64,000 nucleotides of DNA from Myxococcota bacterium. Lineage in GTDB: Bacteria > Myxococcota_A > Polyangia > Polyangiales > Houyiibacteriaceae. The notes beneath the pieces were generated by a model. It was not told the DNA's origin, did not search any database, and saw only the letters and a list, made by a program, of their open reading frames with translations. The stretch spans positions 160,001 through 224,000 of the forward strand of contig JBCCEA010000001.1 in NCBI GenBank assembly GCA_039030515.1, written 5' to 3'. A program made the position numbers and the translations under genes. This document shows positions 43,300 through 59,033 of this stretch, piece by piece. Each line of letters opens with the position of its first letter. Position 1 is the stretch's first letter.

Positions 43300-43931
43300 C
43301 AGGCCGCCCCCATCGGCGCGGGGCGCCGGTAGCGCAGCAAGATGGCGTCGAGCTCCGGGTCGCCGGTCGGGCCACCGCCGCTGCCGGGGCGGTCGAGCTT
43401 GTAGCTCTGGTCGCGGGTGCGCTCCTCGATGATCCGCCAGCGGTTGCGGGCGTCGAAGCCACCGTCGTCGGCCAGCGGGTGCAGCCAGCGCAGCACGAGG
43501 AGGATGCACGCGCGGCGGATGGCGGCCGGGGTGCGCCCCTCCGCGGTCCCGTCGGGCTCGGTGTAGCCGAAGAGCCCAAGGGCCACGACGTTGCCGTGGC
43601 CGCGAGGGAAGCAACCGAGGCGGCGGGTCAGCCGGGGCGCGTCGAAGCCCGGTTCCACCGGCGCCCCGACGACGATCAGCTCGTCGGCGGAGAGCGAGAT
43701 GTCCGCGCCGTCGATGGCGACGCGGTCGAGGTGGATGGGCGGCGCCGGCAGCTCGAGCGAGGGCGCGCCACGGCCGTCGAGGGTCAGCGTCAGCGGGCGC
43801 GGCTCGAAGAACCACCCGGTGACGCGATCGATCTCGGCGGTGGCGGCGTCGATGAGCGCCTCGAGGCGGGCGTCATCGGCCTGTGCCACGGTGACGCCCT
43901 CGGCGCGCAGATCGGCGACGGTGGCGTACAC
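43299..43931 (-). CDS. Head-tail adaptor (gp6/gp15-like)
   Basis: [13 protein letters not shown]...ID..TG, P.AIRRAC and LL.YRRP motifs. Confidence 0.8.
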
Positions 43932-43940
43932 CGGGTCCTC

Positions 43941-44306
<366 letters not shown>

Positions 44307-44324
44307 CGGTCAGTTCTCCATGGC

Positions 44325-45263
<939 letters not shown>

Positions 45264-45276
45264 GGGCGGGGGCTCC

Positions 45277-46128
45277 TTACAGGTCGTGAAAGGAGACCGC
45301 CTTGTCGACGCTCTCCCGATCCATCGGGTTGTTGAGGTCCATCGGCCAGCCCACCTCCTCGGGCGCGGCCTTGCGCACCGATTCGGGGCTCTGGCTGCTG
45401 TTGGGCAGGCCGAACTGCTTCTCGACGCGAGTGAGCCGCTGCTGCTGCTCCTTGACCGTGTCGGCCAGCGCCCGGAACGAGTCCCCCATCGCGGCGAGCG
45501 TGGTGGTGAGCTCGTCGGGCAGCTTCGCCGGCGCCTCGGTCGGCGCGGCCGTGGCCTCGGTCTCAGGCTCCGATGCTGGCGCGCTCGTCAGCGCTGCGAG
45601 CTGGGTCAGCGCCGCGCGGGCGGCCTGGAGGTGGTCGGCGAAGGCGTCGCCGTCCTTGGCGTCCGAGGGCTCCTCGGTCGGCTCCGTGTCCGTGTCGCCT
45701 CCGCCGGTCGCCGCCGGCTCCACGCCCGCGCGGGCGAGCAGCGCCTCGGCGGTCGCCTTGAGCTCGGTCGCCAGCGGCGCGAGCCGGGCGTCGGCCGCCT
45801 GGGCTCCCATCGCGCCGAGCAGCTCGACCGTGCTGGTCAGCCCCTCGAGCGCCGCCACGGCGGTGGCGAGGAGCGGATCCGGCGCGGTCGACTCGGGCTG
45901 ATCGTCCGAGGTGGTGGCAGGCGCCCCCTCTTCGGGGGCGGGCGCATCGGCCGAGGGCTCGGCGCCTTGCTCCTGGGTGTCGGTGTCGGCGTGATCGGCC
46001 ATGGGCGTGTCCCTCTTCACGATGAGAAAGCGGTGCTCGTTCGCCGCGCGGTCCACGAGCGAGACCTCCTCGACGACGATGTCGAGCAGGCGGTTGACGG
46101 ATCGGTCGGCCTTGCGCGGGTCACTCAT
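45277..46128 (-). CDS. Scaffolding protein carrying the N-terminal [10 protein letters not shown] protease strand
   Basis: Acidic, Ala-rich and coiled-coil; directly upstream of the capsid gene. Confidence 0.7.
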
Positions 46129-47477
46129 GCGGCCTCCTCGGCGGGGGCGCCCGAGGGCTCCGCCTCTTCGGTGGCGGTGGGCTCCGGCACGCGGCGGGCC
46201 GAGCCTCCGATGGAGAAGCCCGTGAGCTCGCCGTCCTTCACGCGCCGCCAGAGGTCATCGGAGAGCACGCGCACGGCGAGCAGCCAGGTGCCCTTGGCGA
46301 TGGTCACGTCACCCACCTGGAAGGCGGTCGGCGCGACGTAGCTCTCGAGCACCCTCACGTGGTCGTTGACCCGCAGCTGGTGCATCAGGCCGAGGCCGCC
46401 GAACTCCTCCATGAAGCGGTGGGCTGCCTGGCGGACCTCCTCGTGGGAGTAGATGTCGCCCTGGGCGTCCACGCGCTCGGGCTCGAGGACCACGCCGAGC
46501 ACGTAGCGCTCGTCGTCGGGGTCCACCTCCTTGAGCAGCGTGCAGACCTTCTCGATGGGCGGGTCCGCAGCCGCCTCGGGCGCGGGCTCCCAGTCCTCGA
46601 GCCAGGCGTGGCCGTCCTCGTGCTTCTCGACGAACTTGTAGTTGGCGACGAGCAGCTGGGTGAGCACCGAGGGCCCGCCCACGCCGCGCATCGCCCCGAT
46701 GGTCCGCGGAGTGCGGATGCGCTTGATGTGGAACCCGGCGTCCTTGAGCAGCTTCGGCAGCTTGCCCCGGATGCCGTAGGTCATCAGCCACTTGCCCTTG
46801 AGCGACTTGAGCACCTCGAAGAAGCGCTCCTCGTCGAACTTGGACTCGCCGACGTCCACGTTGTAGCCGGGGTACGGCGGGTCGAGGAAGAAGGCGGTGT
46901 CGGCCCCGTCGTACTTGCGGACGACCGGCTCGTAGTCGCCGGAGTGGACCTTGACCTTCGCCAGGCGCGGCGCGTGCCGCTCCAGGCGGGCCATGGTCTT
47001 GGCCTCGATGCCCTGGACGTTCGGGCTGAACGTCCGGCCGCGCATCTTCCCGTAGGAGAAGTGGGTCAGGTACAGGAAGCGGTGCAGCTGCTCGAGCTCA
47101 CCACGAGGGCTGGCGTCGAGCAGGCGCTTGAACGTCGCCTCGTCGCCGGTCCAGGTCATCCCGCGCAGCTTCTCGAGCTTCTTCGGGTTGAGCTTCTGGA
47201 TGATGCGGAACGCCTTGCCGATCTCGGGGTCGGCGTCGTTGATCGCCTCGACCTCGGCGGGCTCCTTCTCGAAGAGCACCGCGGCCGAGCCGGCGAAGGG
47301 CTCCACGTACACGCGGTGCTTCGGCAGCAGCTTCACGAGCCGGGGCGCGAGGCGCTTCTTGCCGGCGGGCGAGCCCCAGATGGTCTTCTCCACCAGCTCA
47401 CCGTCCGCGCCAGCGGCGCCGAGCCCGTCGAGCACCGCGCGGGCGCGGTCCACGGCGTCCTGCACGTGGTCACCCAT
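46125..47477 (-). CDS. Fusion: Dam-like (D12 class) N6-adenine DNA methyltransferase + XkdF/S78-type prohead protease
   Basis: [16 protein letters not shown] and FLDPPY; C-terminal [29 protein letters not shown] and [10 protein letters not shown]. Confidence 0.88.
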
Positions 47478-47781
47478 GGCGTAGCGCCTCCGGGTCACGC
47501 CCCCAGGTCAGCTCGGCGGCGTCACTGGCCGCCATGTCGCGGGGCCACCCCTCGTCGGTGGGGGCTCCCTTCTCGGTCGCCGACGGCGGCGCGGGCTCCA
47601 CCGCCTGCCGCATCGCGGCGGCGAGATCCGAGAGCTCCTTCGCGGCGTCAGCCGGCACCGGCACGTCGCCGGCCCGGTTGAGCTTGTCGACCACGGCGAC
47701 GAGCCGGCCGCCCAGCGCCTTGAGGGACGCGGCGACCTGGCGGGCCGTGGGGGTCTTGGCTTTCTCTGTCGAGGCGCTCAT
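47470..47781 (-). CDS. Small head-module protein with scaffold-like GWPxD motif
   Basis: First gene after a motif A copy; C-terminus resembles the scaffold C-terminus. Confidence 0.7.
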   Translation of the reverse strand: MSASTEKAKTPTARQVAASLKALGGRLVAVVDKLNRAGDVPVPADAAKELSDLAAAMRQAVEPAPPSATEKGAPTDEGWPRDMAASDAAELTWGRDPEALRHG

Positions 47782-47828
47782 GCGCGGGCTCCCGTTCGCT
47801 CCGAGTCGGCGGAGAGGTCTTCACGGGA

Positions 47829-47858
47829 GTAGAGCCGGGCCCGATTTCGAGTGGGACA
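47829..47858 (-). promoter_or_regulatory. Motif A copy (TGTCCCA-N14-CGGCTCTAC)
   Basis: Upstream of the protease, capsid, neck and sheath genes. Confidence 0.8.
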
Positions 47859-47870
47859 CGACGCCGGCGC

Positions 47871-48956
47871 TCACACCTCGGGCACGGTCGTCGTGCGGCA
47901 GAGCCCGTGGTACGGCGGGAAGCCGACGCCGAGGTCCATCAGCTCGCGGTTGCTCACGGCCCGGCCGTGCTCGCCCTGGTCGTCGACCGTGCCGACGCCG
48001 GAGCGGGTGACCTCGACGAGCGGCGTCCGCAGCCCACCGCGCTCGACGAAGAGCACGGGGTTGCCGGTCTGTGGGTCGAGGGACTCCCGGACCCAGGGCT
48101 GGGCGTCCTTCACGTCCTCGGGCCGCTCCAGGCGGTCGAGGGCGTCGAAGCGGCGGAGCGCGTCGCCCACCTCGAAGACCTTGCCGTGCAGGTAGCGGCA
48201 GATATCGGTGGTCTGCTCGTCGAGCACCGCCTCGATGAGGTAGCGGGTGATGCCCGCCTCGGCGTAGCTGCTGATCTGGGCGTAGGTGCGGCCGTTCCCG
48301 ATGAACGCTCCGGCCACGACGTCCCAGTAGAAGGCGGAGCGCGCGACGAAGGTGTCCTGGGCTGCGGCCTGCAGCGCGGCCGAGATGTCGTCGCGGCCGA
48401 GGCCCGCCTCGAGCCCCTCGGCGACGACGCGGCGCGCGTCTGCGCCGAAGCCATCGATCCGCCGCCCGAGCTCGTCGGTGACGAAGTTGACCTGCGTCCG
48501 CACGACGTGGGCGGTGATCCGGCGGTCGACCGCGTTGAAGTCGGCCCCGATGGCGAGGTTGTGGACGCGGCGGCCGTGGCTGCGGGTGGCCGAGACGACC
48601 TCGTCCGCCGCGGGCCCGAGGGTGGTCTGGATGCGCGCCGGGATGAGGGCGGTCGCGCGGCCGGCGGCGTTCATCGCCTCCGAGACGAGCCGCCGCCTCT
48701 GGGCCGGCGTTGTCCGATGCCAGTCCACGTCGAGCACGTCCACCGCGGCGCGGACCGCGTCCCGCTCCGAGCGTCCCGCCTGCTGGCGAAGCTCGGCCGC
48801 GAGCGACGCGACGGCTCGGTCGAAGCCGCGGGCCGTGCCGAGATCCATCGCCTTGGCCACCGGCTCCCCGAGCAGCTCCGCCGCGAGCGAGCTGGCGACG
48901 CGGTGTGCCTCGGCGACGACGGCGAGGGCGTCAGCGGTACCGCACGTTCCGCACAT
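47871..48956 (-). CDS. MuF/SPP1 gp7-family head morphogenesis protein
   Basis: AVLDEQTTDICRYLHG and PPYHGLCRTT motifs. Confidence 0.85.
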   Translation of the reverse strand: MCGTCGTADALAVVAEAHRVASSLAAELLGEPVAKAMDLGTARGFDRAVASLAAELRQQAGRSERDAVRAAVDVLDVDWHRTTPAQRRRLVSEAMNAAGRATALIPARIQTTLGPAADEVVSATRSHGRRVHNLAIGADFNAVDRRITAHVVRTQVNFVTDELGRRIDGFGADARRVVAEGLEAGLGRDDISAALQAAAQDTFVARSAFYWDVVAGAFIGNGRTYAQISSYAEAGITRYLIEAVLDEQTTDICRYLHGKVFEVGDALRRFDALDRLERPEDVKDAQPWVRESLDPQTGNPVLFVERGGLRTPLVEVTRSGVGTVDDQGEHGRAVSNRELMDLGVGFPPYHGLCRTTTVPEV

Positions 48957-49236
48957 CGGGGCCCTCCTCGAGCTCGGCGACCGAGTCGGTCACGTGGAGC
49001 GTCACGTTGCAGAACACGCAGCGCACCGGCGCTGAGAAGCTGACCCGCTCGCCGTCCTCGCTCTCGGTGATGAGCTGGCCCTGGTGCTGGTGGAACACGG
49101 CGTTGACGAAGCCGCAGCGGGGGCAGCACAGGTGGTAGGCGATGAGCAGCTGCCGGCGGTCCTGAGACACGCGGCGCAGCTCACCGCGATCAAGCCGGCA
49201 TGGCCACTTGGCGACGACGCGGAGTGGGTGGCTCAT
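48931..49236 (-). CDS. Small Zn-ribbon protein
   Basis: CPRCG and CVFC motifs; coupled start at 49236. Confidence 0.65.
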   Translation of the reverse strand: MSHPLRVVAKWPCRLDRGELRRVSQDRRQLLIAYHLCCPRCGFVNAVFHQHQGQLITESEDGERVSFSAPVRCVFCNVTLHVTDSVAELEEGPDVRNVRYR

Positions 49237-49479
49237 CCGTGCCCTCCGACGATGAGCGGTGTCCTCGACCGCGCCCGGACCTCGATCCCATCGGGCGTCG
49301 GCCGCATCAGCAAGTCGTGGGCGCCAGCGCACCGATCGCAGAGCGCGAACACCAGCTGCCCGTTGCGCCACAGGGTGGTCGTCTCGTCGAGGCCCGCCTC
49401 CTGCCTGCACGTCCGACAGGCGATGACGCCGCGCTCGGCGTCGAGCTGGGCCTGCTTCGCCCAGGCCCGGGAGAGAGCG

Positions 49480-49490
<11 letters not shown>
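49233..49490 (-). CDS. Small Zn-finger protein
   Basis: CRTC and CDRC motifs; overlaps both neighbours. Confidence 0.65.
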
Positions 49491-51284
<1,794 letters not shown>

Positions 51285-51288
<4 letters not shown>

Positions 51289-51500
51289 CCCTCGTCCTCG
51301 ACGTAGGCCACGAGCCCCGTGGGCGTGAACGAGATGGCGCGCTCGCGGTGGAAGCCCGCCTCAGCCAGCGCCTGCTTCGCCGCAGGCAGGAGCCCGTCGA
51401 GGGTCCGCGCCTCGACGCTCAGCGTCGGTCCCGGGCGGGTGGGCCCCGCCGGGTGCTTGGGCGAGACGACGAAGACCTTGAGGTCGTGGCAATGCGGCAT
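51285..51500 (-). CDS. Small hypothetical protein
   Basis: Follows a motif A copy; coupled to the portal gene. Confidence 0.6.
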
Positions 51501-51544
51501 GCGGCGGCTCCGGTGGAGGGGCCAGGTCGGCCTCGTTCACCGGA

Positions 51545-51575
51545 GTAGAGCCGGGACAGGAGCAAGTCTGGGACA
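51545..51575 (-). promoter_or_regulatory. Motif A copy (TGTCCCA-N15-CGGCTCTAC)
   Basis: Upstream of the portal operon. Confidence 0.8.
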
Positions 51576-51653
51576 GCACCGCTTGTCTCCGACAAGTCCT
51601 TCGGCGATCTTGATGTGCAAAATCACGGTGGTGCGTTCAACGAGAGTCACGAG

Positions 51654-52910
51654 ATGAAGCTGCCCTTCGAAACCTGGCTGGAAAGCTCCGAGGTTCCCTC
51701 TGAGGCCGACGTCGCCTACCGCGAGTCGGTGATCAGCTACAAGGCGGGGGCGTACCGAGCGGGACTGCTCTTCGCCTATGTTGGTACCGGGCTCTGGCTC
51801 CGACGACGGCTCATCGCGGCCACATGCCCGGCAGGAATTCCAGCCGGCCAATGGGCAGCGATTCAGCGCGATCTGCAAGATGACAACAAGTGGGATGCGA
51901 CGGTGTTCGACTGCACTCAGATGCGCGCACCGAAGGACATCTTCAGCGTGGACGACCACGTGCGCGACGAGTTCAAGTACTGGAAGAATCGCAGGAACGA
52001 CTGCGCGCACTTCAAGAGCAACATCATCGCCGCTTCCCACGTCGAGTCATTCTGGCTATTCTTGCAGTCCAGCATTGGGCGTTGGGTGCCGAACGGAAGC
52101 GCCCAGGACCTGATCGAGCGACTCGCTCGCCACTTTGATCCGAACCTCACGCCCCCCGGCACCGATGTCGGACCACTCGTGGCGTTGGTGCCGCACGCGG
52201 TTCCGCACGCCGAACTACCGGGCTTCTTCGATTCGCTGGAGACGCGGTTCACCAGAACCCTCGGTACGTTCGCGATGGTCAACCGGGATGCACTCATCCA
52301 CATACACGAGGCGATCTTGCGCGGGGCCAACGCCGTCGTGGCCCCGGCATCGATTACGTGGCTCCTGGGACACCCGGACATCCTGGTAGGGGTTCTGAGA
52401 AAAAGCGCCAGCCACGTGCTCTGTCTGTCGGGTCGTGCGACCGAGGTCCGCAAGCTCTGGCGGACGCAGCTCTTCGATGGCGGCCACCAGGACCTCGGGG
52501 TCGTTGCCGCGCTGCTCAGGAACAACTTGATTCCCTCCGCAGAGATAGCTGAGGCCATCGAGACGACGGTTGGGAAGCTCAACGGCGACATTCCGTCTGC
52601 GATCGACGAGCCGGTCCTGGCTGCACACGGCTTTTGGAGCCGCTTCCACGATCACGCCGTCCTGAACCGCCAAATGGACAAGTTCGAATGGGGGAACCGC
52701 AACGCGGGACTCATTGCATGGCGGGTCCAGAATGCCCCAATCGACCGCGAGACCGCAGAGGCTATCTGCGGGGTGTTCTCCTGTGAGCCATACCCTTTCA
52801 CCGTGCGAGATGCTCTGAAGGAGATGCTCGCGGGGAGCCCTGCAAAGATGTCTGAGCTGCAAGCTGCAGCGACCCAGGCCGGAACGAGCGTTCCCTCCGT
52901 GTTGACGTAG
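51654..52910 (+). CDS. HEPN-like (RxxxxH) protein, candidate abortive-infection moron
   Basis: E...Y..GAYRA helix and YWKNRRNDCAH; visibly weaker GC3 bias than the flanks; opposite strand. Confidence 0.65.
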   Translation: MKLPFETWLESSEVPSEADVAYRESVISYKAGAYRAGLLFAYVGTGLWLRRRLIAATCPAGIPAGQWAAIQRDLQDDNKWDATVFDCTQMRAPKDIFSVDDHVRDEFKYWKNRRNDCAHFKSNIIAASHVESFWLFLQSSIGRWVPNGSAQDLIERLARHFDPNLTPPGTDVGPLVALVPHAVPHAELPGFFDSLETRFTRTLGTFAMVNRDALIHIHEAILRGANAVVAPASITWLLGHPDILVGVLRKSASHVLCLSGRATEVRKLWRTQLFDGGHQDLGVVAALLRNNLIPSAEIAEAIETTVGKLNGDIPSAIDEPVLAAHGFWSRFHDHAVLNRQMDKFEWGNRNAGLIAWRVQNAPIDRETAEAICGVFSCEPYPFTVRDALKEMLAGSPAKMSELQAAATQAGTSVPSVLT

Positions 52911-52922
52911 GGCGTTCCTGGC

Positions 52923-54353
<1,431 letters not shown>

Positions 54354-54397
54354 CGCGGGCCTCGACCGTGGCGATGGCCGCTTTGCCTCGGACTCTG

Positions 54398-54427
54398 CTT
54401 GATAGGTGCCGCGAAGGAAGCGTGTAT
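54398..54427 (+). promoter_or_regulatory. Motif B copy (CTTGAT-N13-GAAGCGTGTAT)
   Basis: Plus-strand copy oriented with, and 37 bp upstream of, the recombinase gene. Confidence 0.72.
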
Positions 54428-54463
54428 GGCCTCGACGGAACGAACCTGAACCCCGGAGACGCC

Positions 54464-55078
54464 ATGACCGCCTACGCCGACCGCATCGCCCGCGCCCCCC
54501 GAACCCTCTCCGAGCGCGAGCAGCGCGCGCTGCTCGCCGTGACCGGACAGCACAAGGACGGGTTCCGCGACCACGTCATCTACAGCCTCGCCCTGGGCAC
54601 CGGCCTGCGCGAGCACGAGCTCCTCGCCCTCGACGTGGGCGACGTGTTCAGCGACGGCCGCGCGCGGCGGCGGGTGCAGCTGCGGGTGTTCAAGCGCAGC
54701 AACGACGACGTCGCCAGCCAGGAGGTGATCCTCCCCGACAACGTCCGCGCCAAGCTCGACAAGCTCTACGCCTGGAAGCGCCGGGCCGGGCAGCCCCTCG
54801 ACGACGACGCGCCGCTCTTCATGAGCCGCAAGGGCAACCGCCTCTCGACCCGGCAGGCCCGCCACGCCTTCAAGCGCTGGCAGGAGCGCGCCGGCTTCGA
54901 CCGGACCTTCAACTTCCACGCCCTGCGCCACACGGCCTGCACGAACCTCTACCGCGCCTCGCGGGACATCCGGCTCACCCAGCGATTCGCTCGGCACAAG
55001 ACGATCACCTCGACGGCGATCTACACGCACCCCACCGACGAGGACCTGATCCGGTCGCTCCAGCAGCTCACCTGCTGA
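54464..55078 (+). CDS. Tyrosine recombinase, catalytic domain only (204 aa)
   Basis: [26 protein letters not shown] (R-K-H-R-H-Y intact); RBS GGAG. Confidence 0.9.
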
Positions 55079-56474: not shown

Positions 56475-56809
56475 TGGCTGCGCAGCTCCCACCATTCGCC
56501 GACCAGATCGAGGAAGTCATCGAGCAGGAGGGTGACGGTGGGCGCCGCGCGGTCGTCGCGGACCACGGCGATGGGGAGGCGTCCGTCGGGCGACGCCTCG
56601 ATGGCCTGGCGGAGCGCGGCCCGCATGTTGGGCTTCTTGCCCCGCTTCGCCTCGACCCAGAACACCGGGCACTCGACGTCGGCCGCCTCCTCGCCGGAGC
56701 GGGTCTGGAACCCGCGCTTCACGTCGGCGCCGGGCATGGCGTCGCGGAACCGGTGCACGAGCTCACGCTCCCACGCGGCTCCCTTTCGTCTGGACCGGGC
56801 GCCGCTCAT
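56471..56809 (-). CDS. Holliday junction resolvase-like PD-(D/E)XK nuclease
   Basis: [15 protein letters not shown] and WVEAKR motifs. Confidence 0.8.
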
Positions 56810-57858
56810 GGGTCGCCTCCAGGCTGGGCGAAGCGAACGGGGATGCCGCGCGCCTCGGCGTGTTCGATCTCGAGCCGCATGCCCTCGCTGATCCGCTCGC
56901 CGTACACCCGGAGCTCATCACAGGCGTCGAGCAGCTCGAGGCAGAGGGTCAGCGCCTCGTCCCGCTGGGTGGCCTCGTCGAGGAACGCCGGCAGGTAGAG
57001 CTGCGGCGCGATCGGGGCGAAGCCGTCCTCGGTGAGCGTGCGGCACAGGGCGGTGACTCGGGCGACGTTGGCCTCGGGCGCGTCGCGGTAGGGGTGGCAG
57101 ACGTAGACGCGACGTCGGCGGATCCGGGGCACTCGCGGCCGGCCCAGGCGGACCAGCTCGGCCGCGCAGTAGTGCAGGCCGTCGATGACCTCGGCGAAGG
57201 CCTCGGCCCGGTAGTCGCGGCCGTCATCGACCTTCCACGGGCCGTACTCGTCGCGGCCACCCTCGATACGGTCGAGGAGCGCCTCGACGATGGGCTGCTC
57301 GTCGGCGACGAGGTTGGCGACCCGCCGGCCTACGAGGGCTCGGTCGCGCAGCTTGCGGGCGACCTCGAGGGAGGCCATCGCGTCGGCGAGCGCGCGGTGT
57401 GGTGTCGGGCGGCTCAGGCCGAGCGCCTTGCACACGGCGTCGAGGGAGAGCGAGTCGGTCTCCGCCGAGGCGAAGAGCGGCCAGGCGAGGCTGGCGGTGT
57501 CGAGGCGGTGGTAGTCGACCTCGGGGATGGGCATGCCGGCGACGAGGAAGCCGCGGGCGAGGAAGGCCCAGTCGAAGCTGACGTTGTGTCCCGCCACCAG
57601 CGCGCCCTCGAGGAGCGGGGCGACGCGGCGCAGGCCCGCCGCGAGGCTGACGGCGTCGCGCCAGGCGTCGTCGCTGTAGCCGTTGACCTCCTGCGCCTTG
57701 GGGTCGGCGTCAGCGAGCCGCTCCGGGCGCACCTTCACGCTGACGTGGTCCAGGGGCTCGAGGGAGTGCCGGTCGACGCGCATGGCCGCGAGCTCGATCA
57801 GCTCGTGGCGCACGGGGTCGAGCCCGGTCGTCTCGACGTCGACGAAGCAGAGGTCCAT
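56806..57858 (-). CDS. DEDDh 3'-5' exonuclease fused to an all-alpha NTP-pyrophosphatase-like segment and a DUF4406/NDT-like domain
   Basis: VDVETTG, GHNVSFD, HRALAD; EYG...[16 protein letters not shown]...[15 protein letters not shown]...GIPV. Confidence 0.75.
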
Positions 57859-59033
57859 CACGCGACCTCCTTCGCCCAGAAGCGCTGCGAGAAGCGCTTC
57901 TCCGCGATGGCGTCGAGCTCGGCCTTGAGCAGCGTGACCCGGTCCTTGCCGATCGACTTGGCGAGCCTCTTCACGAGGGCGTCGAGCGACTTCTTGTCGA
58001 TGGAGCCGATCTGGGTGAGGAGCGCCTCGGGGCTCTCGCCGGTGGCGGAGACCAGCGCCGAGAGCGTGCGTTCGAGCGGGTACTCCTTCGAGGCCGCGTT
58101 GAACATGCGGTAGCGGACGCCGCCGAGCACCAGCTCGTCCTGGTCCTCGAGGCGGCTCTTGAGCACACCCTCGAGCTCGCGCTTGCGGGCGTAGAGCACC
58201 TTGGCCAGCCGGGCGACCTCCTCTCGCTCCTGGGCAACCAGCTCCAGGTCCTCGAGGTCCTCGCACACGACGGTCCGCTCACCGCGGAGGGCGGCGGCGT
58301 AGGTCGGGCAGTCCTGTCGGTGGTCGCAGTAGACGCAATTGCTGTTCAGGCGCGCGGGGAACTGGCGGGCCTCCTCGGTCATCCGGCCCATCGTCTCGAC
58401 GTAGGCGCGGGCGGCGGCGAGCTGCTCCTCGTCGCGCTCGGTGGTCATCCGGATGTCGTGCCGGAGCATGTCGAAGGTGAGCCGTACCTTCTTCGCCCAC
58501 GGCCACAGCTGGCGCGCGGCCAGGTGGTAGAGCGACATCTGCAGGCTCGTGTCCACCTCCTCGCGGGTGAAGAGCATGCGGTTGGTCTTGTAGTCGATGA
58601 CCTCGACCGTCTCGTCGTCGACGCGATCGACCCGGTCGATGAAGCCGAGCACGGTGAAGGGGCCGACGGAGAGCTCGAAGCGCTTCTCGATGGCCAGCAC
58701 GTCCTGGTGGTCGAGGTGACCCTGACGGCGCACGTAGGAGCGCAGGAGGGTGAGCCCCTCCTCGAAGACCTCGATGCCGGAGAGCTCGCCGGCGGCCCAC
58801 GCCTCCTGCCACAGCGTCACCGCGCGGTCCTCGGAGAGCGGGCCCTCGCGCTCCTCCTCCATGTGCTCGCGCACGAGGTTCTCGAGCACCGCGTGTACGG
58901 CCTTGCCGAAGCGCAGCGGCACGCCGGGATCGGCCTGCTTCTTGTCGATGTAGTGCAGCTTGAAGCTGAGCGGGCACTGCTCGAAGCGGGACAGGCGCGA
59001 GTAGGACAGGTGCTGGTTCTTGAAGCGCGGCAT
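57858..59033 (-). CDS. PD-(D/E)XK (RecB/AddB-like) exonuclease
   Basis: LSYSRL..FEQCP, GKAVH, GFIDRVD, IDYKT, QMSLY and CVYCD...C. Confidence 0.88.

Follow-up and report, generated by a model that had tools for sequence, protein, structure and literature searches.

A single gene in the head operon of a prophage encodes a Dam-like DNA methyltransferase joined in one chain to an XkdF-type prohead protease, an arrangement that is consistent with the protease acting as a device for loading the enzyme into the phage head. The prophage lies in a window of 64,000 nucleotides from the metagenome-assembled genome of a Myxococcota bacterium (assembly GCA_039030515.1, contig JBCCEA010000001.1, positions 160,001-224,000), and all coordinates below are those of this window. 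The genome is a draft of 4.08 Mb in 75 contigs that is 85% complete, and the methyltransferase-protease gene is present in it as a single copy. In the reading that we favour, and to which we give an even chance, the chain co-assembles with the scaffold, the protease cuts at motifs ending in lysine, and the methyltransferase, once released, remains in the head until it passes with the DNA into the next cell.

Positions 46125-47498 (-) form a single open frame, which has 457 codons when read from the GTG at 47498. The ATG at 47477, giving a protein of 450 amino acids, is the likely start, since the first seven codons, GTG included, are gapped in at least 105 of 121 aligned rows and a methionine is found at the eighth codon in 93 of them. 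The alignment consists of the window protein and 120 homologs, which are the best 120 of 744 database matches. The following parts of the gene can be distinguished:

46125-47477 (-): whole methyltransferase-protease gene, 450 amino acids plus a TGA stop at 46125-46127; the longest open reading frame starts from GTG 47498.
47385-47477 (-): N-terminal leader, residues 1-31; predicted by AlphaFold2 (AF2) as a helix at residues 2-23, followed by a low-confidence stretch ending in V-E-K before Thr32.
46623-47384 (-): D12/Dam-like N6-adenine DNA methyltransferase domain, residues 32-285, assigned from Pfam, Foldseek and invariant motifs; EPFAGS at 47286-47303 and DPPY at 46872-46883.
46548-46622 (-): linker, residues 286-310, ending in I-E-K before the protease; predicted local distance difference test score (pLDDT) below 50 at residues 300-312.
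46185-46547 (-): XkdF-type prohead protease domain, residues 311-431, assigned from Pfam and the domain model; His366 at 46380-46382 and Ser422 at 46212-46214.
46128-46184 (-): C-terminal tail, predicted to be disordered; the scaffold gene has its ribosome-binding site, GAGGAGG, within the final codons of this tail, and the stop and the scaffold ATG overlap as ATGA.

An earlier note, made by inspection of this DNA, had placed one open reading frame with both domains at 46125-47477. Pfam and the alignment bear this out, and the motifs that it listed (EPFAGS, NDAD, DPPY, GLMH and GFSIGG) are all present in the translation. PHROG 13242, a family of unknown function, matches the fusion protein from end to end (E 4e-216). 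The AF2 model of the fusion has a mean pLDDT of 73.7, with the methyltransferase domain mostly at 80-97. It is made up of the helix at 2-23, a low-confidence stretch at 20-37, a confident core at 40-278, a low-confidence linker at 300-312, the protease at 314-422 and a disordered tail; the end of the leader and the linker are probably flexible, as judged from this model. An internal start for a separate protease was considered and rejected. The sole Shine-Dalgarno-like run in the linker region abuts a GTG with zero spacer, and the position of this GTG is occupied by Gly in 106 of the 121 homologs; no conserved internal start was found.

A draft in 75 contigs with 85% completeness might in principle have joined two adjacent genes through an assembly error or a frameshift, and the earlier note had suggested surveying homologs for the fusion and had named two separate genes in reads and relatives as a sign of an artefact. 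The fusion stands. Both Pfam families are present in all 120 homologs examined, which come from several sources, and those that bear source names are Myxococcota (Corallococcus, Myxococcus, Archangium, Polyangiaceae, Sandaracinaceae and a Haliangium locus tag). Of 32 related viral contigs, 23 have a single open frame running through both halves. The linker is bridged by contigs from X2, X4 and X7 and from the RNA library X15, and all seven listed indels fall outside 46125-47477. X4, X7 and X15 belong to three other studies; X2 comes from the study to which the possible source sample belongs and does not count as independent. An artefact is thus refuted as far as the present data reach, and its probability is, in our estimate, negligible.

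Among 41 related genomes, strong matches are sporadic (G003, G015, G017, G023 and G029), as expected for a prophage gene. Near-identical copies of 45200-47900 (about 60% of sampled words) are found in metagenomes of marine, aquaculture, aquatic and biofilm origin from many studies. Contigs of the marine metatranscriptome X15 cover the gene at 95-99% likeness; such libraries can contain DNA, and these contigs are hence not evidence of expression.

The methyltransferase half is recognized by PF02086 (MethyltransfD12) with 58.9 bits (Pfam cut-off 22) over residues 46-264 of the 457-residue frame. The DPPY motif and the E, P, F and G of the S-adenosylmethionine (SAM)-binding motif EPFxG are conserved in all 121 sequences. 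With the methyltransferase core as the query, Foldseek matches 7m6b_A (Mcbe1) with an E value of 3e-13 and a target-normalised TM-score of 0.76. EcoDam (E. coli Dam), DpnM and T4 Dam are also matched, and the target-normalised TM-scores span 0.65-0.76 across the matches. The NCBIfam model for the dam subfamily, TIGR00571, gives 59.7 bits, which is under its curated cut-off of 114.85. By these sequence scores the enzyme is a relative of the dam subfamily and not a curated member, and therefore a GATC target should not be assumed. The PADLOC models oMTase and MTase_II match it as well.

The protease half scores 106.5 bits with PF14550 (Peptidase_S78_2/XkdF; Pfam cut-off 24) and matches PHROG 3017, 'head maturation protease', with an E value of 1e-35. 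His366 and Ser422, which we take to be the catalytic residues of this XkdF-type protease, are conserved in 121 of 121 close homologs. In 50 diverse XkdF domains the His is invariant and the Ser is kept in at least 90%. Because EPFxG, DPPY and the protease His and Ser are kept in all 121 sequences, both halves appear to be under selection as enzymes. A Pfam scan of the 11 open reading frames of the head region found no second protease.

A sequence search of solved structures returned no XkdF protease, and only two Dam-type chains were found below E 0.001. A separate model of the protease domain, built with 49 diverse relatives, has a pLDDT of 82.7. Foldseek gave zero matches to this model at E 0.001 or better, and the top structural match is T4 gp21 (E 0.02, prob 0.99, TM-score 0.43). 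With VIA, T4 gp21 is aligned over 108 residues with a Z-score of 7.0, in a range that the tool calls common, and a root-mean-square deviation (rmsd) of 3.6; the next match is the varicella-zoster virus (VZV) protease (Z 4.8, rmsd 2.9, 89 aligned). The scores are modest, and the ranking of the matches fits an assemblin-like fold for the model.

The gene stands in the head operon, where the earlier note had put it, with neighbours that run from the terminase large subunit (TerL) to the capsid. The order on the same strand is TerL, portal, MuF, orf103, methyltransferase-protease, scaffold and capsid:

52923-54353 (-): terminase large subunit, start of the head and packaging module (Pfam, PHROG).
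49480-51288 (-): portal protein (Pfam); conserved I-L-K before A at residues 17-20.
47871-48956 (-): MuF-like minor head protein (Pfam); conserved P-V-A-K before A about 35 residues from the N-terminus.
47470-47781 (-): orf103, a small head-operon protein of 103 amino acids; its stop overlaps the methyltransferase ATG, and it shares G-W-P-x-D with the scaffold C-terminus.
45277-46128 (-): scaffold-like protein of 283 amino acids; invariant motif at residues 10-39 (46012-46101) and conserved V-E-K before Q-F-G near the C-terminus.
44325-45263 (-): HK97-fold major capsid protein (Pfam, PHROG); conserved L-[EQA]-K before A-D at residues 10-14.

Tail tube, sheath, tape measure and baseplate genes lie downstream of the head genes, and on the basis of its gene content the element is a myovirus-type prophage. 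Stop and start codons overlap on both sides of the methyltransferase-protease gene, and the order portal-MuF-[cargo]protease-scaffold-capsid is found in 29 of 32 viral loci. A late-type promoter had been proposed at 47829 and is unconfirmed: a scan of 43800-54600 confined to sigma-70-type promoters returned 0 promoter-like sites and 1 terminator-like site, where 3.9 would be expected.

What stands in front of the protease varies in both number and kind. Of the best 120 homologs, 61 are at least 590 amino acids long, and 55 of these contain two DPPY and two EPFxG motifs, corresponding to tandem methyltransferases before the protease; a scaffold fused in frame behind the protease is found in only three of the 61. 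P0126 and P0151 have three D12 stretches each. The earlier note had also raised the prospect of other cargo domains swapped into this position, and such cargos are found. In one locus that keeps the portal-MuF-x-scaffold-capsid order (L027), the protease ends a 1233-residue protein containing an ATP-dependent ligase domain, and in two more with the same gene order (L028 and L029) the proteins have 877 and 409 residues and give no Pfam match ahead of the protease.

The 146-residue protease domain was also searched against 1.84 billion cluster representatives, which gave 6304 matches at E 0.001 or better. Partner domains were counted in the best 150 of these 6304, which are the nearest relatives of this protease and no fair sample of the family. 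The protease domain ends at most 25 residues from the C-terminus in 130 of them (21 residues in the fusion described here), and more than 150 residues precede it in 122. The partners are a D12 methyltransferase in 26, InPase in 23 (one below the Pfam cut-off), ATP DNA ligase in nine, the Thoeris-inhibitor family Tad3 in three, and a 2H phosphoesterase and an intein in one each; the others are unmatched in front. Up to five Pfam families occur per chain in relatives, and the cargos reach 1200-2190 residues.

The junctions between these parts carry short motifs of the form hydrophobic-x-Lys, which recur in the neighbouring head proteins. The sites named in the earlier note (LVEK|T, FVEK|H and PIEK|V in the fusion, LQK|A in the capsid, VAK|A in MuF, ILK|A in the portal and VEK|Q in the scaffold) are present and most are conserved in relatives. 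The note had made its proposal depend on this conservation, which is as follows:

Lys31, before the methyltransferase: Lys in 120 of 121.
Lys285, five residues past the last methyltransferase strand: Lys in 116 of 121; P2 and P3 variable.
Lysine before the protease: Lys in 87 of 121; Phe or Ile at P3 in 104.
Junction before the second methyltransferase in tandem forms: Lys in 48 of 48; Leu, Val or Ile at P3 in 47 and Glu at P2 in 42.
Capsid residue 12: Lys in 28 of 28, preceded by Glu in 23, Gln in 3 and Ala in 2.
Scaffold [VL]-E-K before Q/G: 20 of 22.
Portal [ILV]-[LV]-K-A: 11 of 11.
MuF lysine: 13 of 13.

In addition, Lys38-Arg39 of the scaffold is invariant and directly follows its N-terminal motif. 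Taken together, the motifs fit a head protease that would cut after hydrophobic-x-Lys. The S78 protease of HK97 cuts after lysine.

Two further resemblances were seen among these proteins. Orf103 (47470-47781) and the C-terminus of the scaffold (45277-45400) share G-W-P-x-D-[ML], located 10-27 residues after an E-K, which may be a capsid-binding peptide released by cleavage. The methyltransferase leader (47385-47477) resembles the N-terminus of MuF (48850-48956), both having a helix with A-R and L positions followed by P-V-[A/E]-K, and MuF and the cargo chain may share a head-targeting or propeptide leader with this ending.

A route into the head is suggested by the scaffold. Conservation in this protein is highest over the first 40 residues, where 14 positions are invariant among 20 sequences, distant loci included. 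When the protease domain and scaffold residues 1-60 are predicted as a complex, the ipSAE is 0.69, while the best of three controls gives 0.00. Of 157 solved complexes, 116 reach this mark, as do 2 of 215 mismatched pairs, counts that hold only roughly, since our own alignments were fed to the docking run. At least 89% of contacts are common to the runs, and the partner pLDDT is at least 58. Predicted contacts run along protease-domain residues 112-128 and 56-62, the segments with the conserved Ser and His. Docking of the N-terminal scaffold motif on the protease is thus supported by the prediction, in terms of model confidence and not of binding, and scaffold residues 10-39 may complete or regulate the protease besides recruiting it. 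We know of no solved complex of a like kind. Protease and scaffold are fused in frame in three relatives. A conserved Glu-Ala-Ala end at the C-terminus was considered as a targeting signal and rejected, because the last protease codons are also the ribosome-binding site of the scaffold gene.

The domains and their conservation, the synteny, the variable cargo, the motifs and the docking prediction lead us to propose the following course of events. Late in infection, a chain would be made that consists of the leader, the Dam-like methyltransferase, the linker and the XkdF prohead protease. Its protease end would dock on the N-terminal motif of the scaffold, such that the chain is built into the procapsid. 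The enclosed protease would then cut after hydrophobic-x-Lys, trimming the N-termini of capsid, portal and MuF and fragmenting the scaffold. It would also cut its own leader and linker, which would leave the folded methyltransferase of about 29 kDa free in the head. A protein of this size would exceed the capsid pores and be retained with the DNA. Upon ejection into the next cell, it would methylate the incoming genome before restriction enzymes act. The earlier note had seen the protease as a packaging tag, and the anatomy fits this idea: the fusion is conserved, its protease is the sole head protease found, the cargo is variable, lysine motifs lie at the junctions and docking is predicted. 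Its further suggestion, methylation of DNA while packaging is under way, gains no separate support from these findings. The remainder, from incorporation and cleavage to retention, ejection and methylation of the phage genome, we infer.

A broader version, which we hold somewhat more tentatively, is that XkdF head proteases are a general modular loading device for N-terminal enzymes bracketed by hydrophobic-x-Lys, which would be drawn into the procapsid as the protease clamps onto the N-terminal scaffold motif, and then be cut free and injected with the DNA. The prophage lineage would tune its anti-restriction load through one, two or three methyltransferase modules, and related phages would load ligase, pyrophosphatase-like and Thoeris-inhibitor domains likewise.

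Several observations weigh against loading of the methyltransferase into the head. Head proteases are usually present at tens of copies per head. At such numbers, cargos of 1200-2190 residues would be expected to crowd out the DNA, which implies that few copies enter or that the cargo is degraded. Lys31 abuts the conserved start of the methyltransferase and Lys285 is near its last strand, such that their conservation may serve the enzyme itself; P2 and P3 vary at Lys285, and a hydrophobic-x-Lys motif is also found inside the folded methyltransferase. No paper giving the specificity of XkdF proteases was found. Known structures match the protease domain modestly (Foldseek E 0.02, with a VIA Z-score of 7.0 that is common for a best match), and the calibration of the docking score is approximate. 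In addition, a tblastn search of INPHARED with the whole protein matched 534 records, of which 0 cover 80% of the query, so that this collection of isolated phages yields no carrier of the fusion.

Some of these points would suit an enzyme that works late in the cytoplasm. Here, the fusion would couple synthesis of the methyltransferase to that of the abundant late head proteins, and progeny DNA would be methylated before or during packaging by an uncut or self-cleaved chain; copies carried into the head would be degraded with the scaffold and have no role in the next cell. The location in a late head operon, with overlapping stop and start codons on both sides, and the invariant methyltransferase motifs agree with this, the extra hydrophobic-x-Lys inside the domain could permit degradation, and the copy-number argument speaks against keeping large cargos. 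Late phage methyltransferases exist, examples being P1 Dmt and Mu Mom. However, a separate gene would suffice for such a role, which leaves unexplained that the fusion is kept in all 120 homologs examined, that the cargo precedes the protease in nearly every case and that the other cargos (ligase, InPase and Tad3) suit DNA entry. We regard a purely cytoplasmic role as the main alternative, possible and somewhat doubtful.

The remaining alternatives concern what the methyltransferase does. That its fold is a structural or DNA-binding part of the head core, an internal protein or a scaffold helper that transfers no methyl groups would agree with its position, which in other phages is the slot of scaffold or internal-core proteins, and with its score below the NCBI dam cut-off. 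The SAM-binding and DPPY motifs are nevertheless invariant and the fold matches active Dam enzymes, making this explanation very unlikely. We give equally little credence to an enzyme that acts on the host chromosome of the lysogen, in epigenetic control or as an orphan methylase, with the protease fusion being incidental. Orphan Dam-like prophage enzymes are common, and the PADLOC matches are of the corresponding kind; yet the gene is inside the head operon with translational coupling, the scan found no sigma-70-like promoter nearby, and the linkage to the protease is strict.

Loading of the freed methyltransferase into the head has parallels in known phages. The internal proteins of T4 and Alt carry a capsid-targeting sequence that is cut by the prohead protease gp21. 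The course proposed here from the genes resembles this system in procapsid loading, release by the head protease, retention and ejection with the DNA, and T4 gp21 is the top structural match of our protease model. It differs in that the T4 cargos are separate proteins with a short N-terminal tag that is cut after Glu, whereas here the protease domain itself would be a C-terminal 'tag' and the motif ends in Lys. An N-terminal tag cut at Leu/Ile-x-Glu by an S77 protease is not found here, and the fusion may work like the T4 system without being a member of it. In HK97 gp4 (MEROPS S78), lambda C/Nu3 and Mu I/Z, the protease is enclosed in the procapsid via its C-terminal side and tied to the scaffold. 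The tie to the scaffold is shared with the present case; unlike it, those proteases have no N-terminal enzyme cargo, and XkdF is a separate Pfam family (PF14550).

In a wider sense, the fusion resembles the polyvalent phage proteins defined by Iyer, Burroughs, Anand, de Souza and Aravind (2017, J Bacteriol, PMC5512222). The passages of that paper on these proteins list N6-adenine methylases among their hub domains, and the section 'Peptidases' states that an assemblin-like peptidase is always C-terminal in such proteins, where it probably serves processing in virion assembly. The peptidase is given three sentences there and is termed 'rather limited in distribution'; T4 Alt packaging is mentioned as well. 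Measured against these passages, the fusion has in common joined enzyme domains, a C-terminal assemblin-like peptidase, a locus among head genes and predicted packaging and delivery with the DNA. What differs is that the peptidase here is the phage's own prohead protease, that the chain is minimal with one cargo, that the number and kind of cargo vary at a syntenic slot, and that Lys-ending junctions and a scaffold dock are proposed. Two distinct domains in one chain, the head-operon locus and the C-terminal assemblin-like peptidase are all present, and the fusion may belong to this class already predicted in print; the supplements of that paper may list its architecture. P1 DarB, as described in the same source, is a head-carried DNA methyltransferase that protects the incoming genome in cis, which is what we propose here from the genes. 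DarB is in contrast a large methylase-helicase that follows the DarA/Hdf pathway, whereas the present enzyme is of another methylase class and covalently joined to a protease; Pfam gives only PF02086 and PF14550, and no SF2/SNF2 helicase.

Our literature search found no experimental study of a methyltransferase-protease fusion. A preprint on phi24B describes a different, metallopeptidase-type polyvalent protein that was found in virions by proteomics, which does not bear on the fusion. A review of myxophages mentions only Mx8 Mox, and a paper on a P. gingivalis phage was considered and has no bearing on the fusion.

Several XkdF matches in isolated phages are labelled 'DNA methyltransferase' in GenBank. 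They were considered as fusions and rejected as too short:

L033, 2983-3453: Pseudomonas phage PAK_P2 gp003, 156 amino acids, labelled 'DNA methyltransferase'.
L034, 3950-4588: Rhizobium phage RHph_Y1_11, 212 amino acids, labelled 'DNA methyltransferase'.
L035, 3908-4957: Lactococcus phage 98201, 349 amino acids with the protease first, labelled 'DNA methyltransferase'.

These three proteins are bare or scaffold-linked XkdF proteases, and the labels probably arose by name transfer from fusion proteins. The relevant passage of PMC6521218 reports a 17-kDa 'putative methyltransferase' in SCUT-S2 virions. Since the XkdF matches with this kind of label are too short for fusions, the protein is probably a bare protease and uninformative on the packaging of a methyltransferase.

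Three other loci in the window may be noted. An open reading frame of 431 amino acids lies at 51615-52910 (+), on the opposite strand between the terminase and portal genes. It sits in bins of lower G+C content (0.67-0.69 versus about 0.71-0.73 nearby), gives no Pfam, PADLOC or NCBIfam match, and is a candidate for a moron or a defence gene within the head operon. At 17516-19089 (-), near the left edge of the phage-like region, overlapping genes carry GGACT/AIG2-like and Amidoligase_2 domains. Upstream of the terminase gene, at 56806-59033 (-), an RNase_T-type exonuclease fused to DUF7768 adjoins a PD-(D/E)XK nuclease; these nucleases probably belong to the replication and recombination module of the prophage.

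A by-product of this analysis concerns annotation, in that plain XkdF proteases of several isolated phages are mislabelled 'DNA methyltransferase' in GenBank. Cultured Myxococcota that carry close homologs would make the design testable, and the design could be adapted for packing proteins of choice into phage capsids. If the proposed loading is correct, it would account for many long and mostly unannotated 'protease' genes that form a large class in uncultured phages, and a simple covalent trick would protect the phage genome when it is most exposed, ahead of any phage gene expression.

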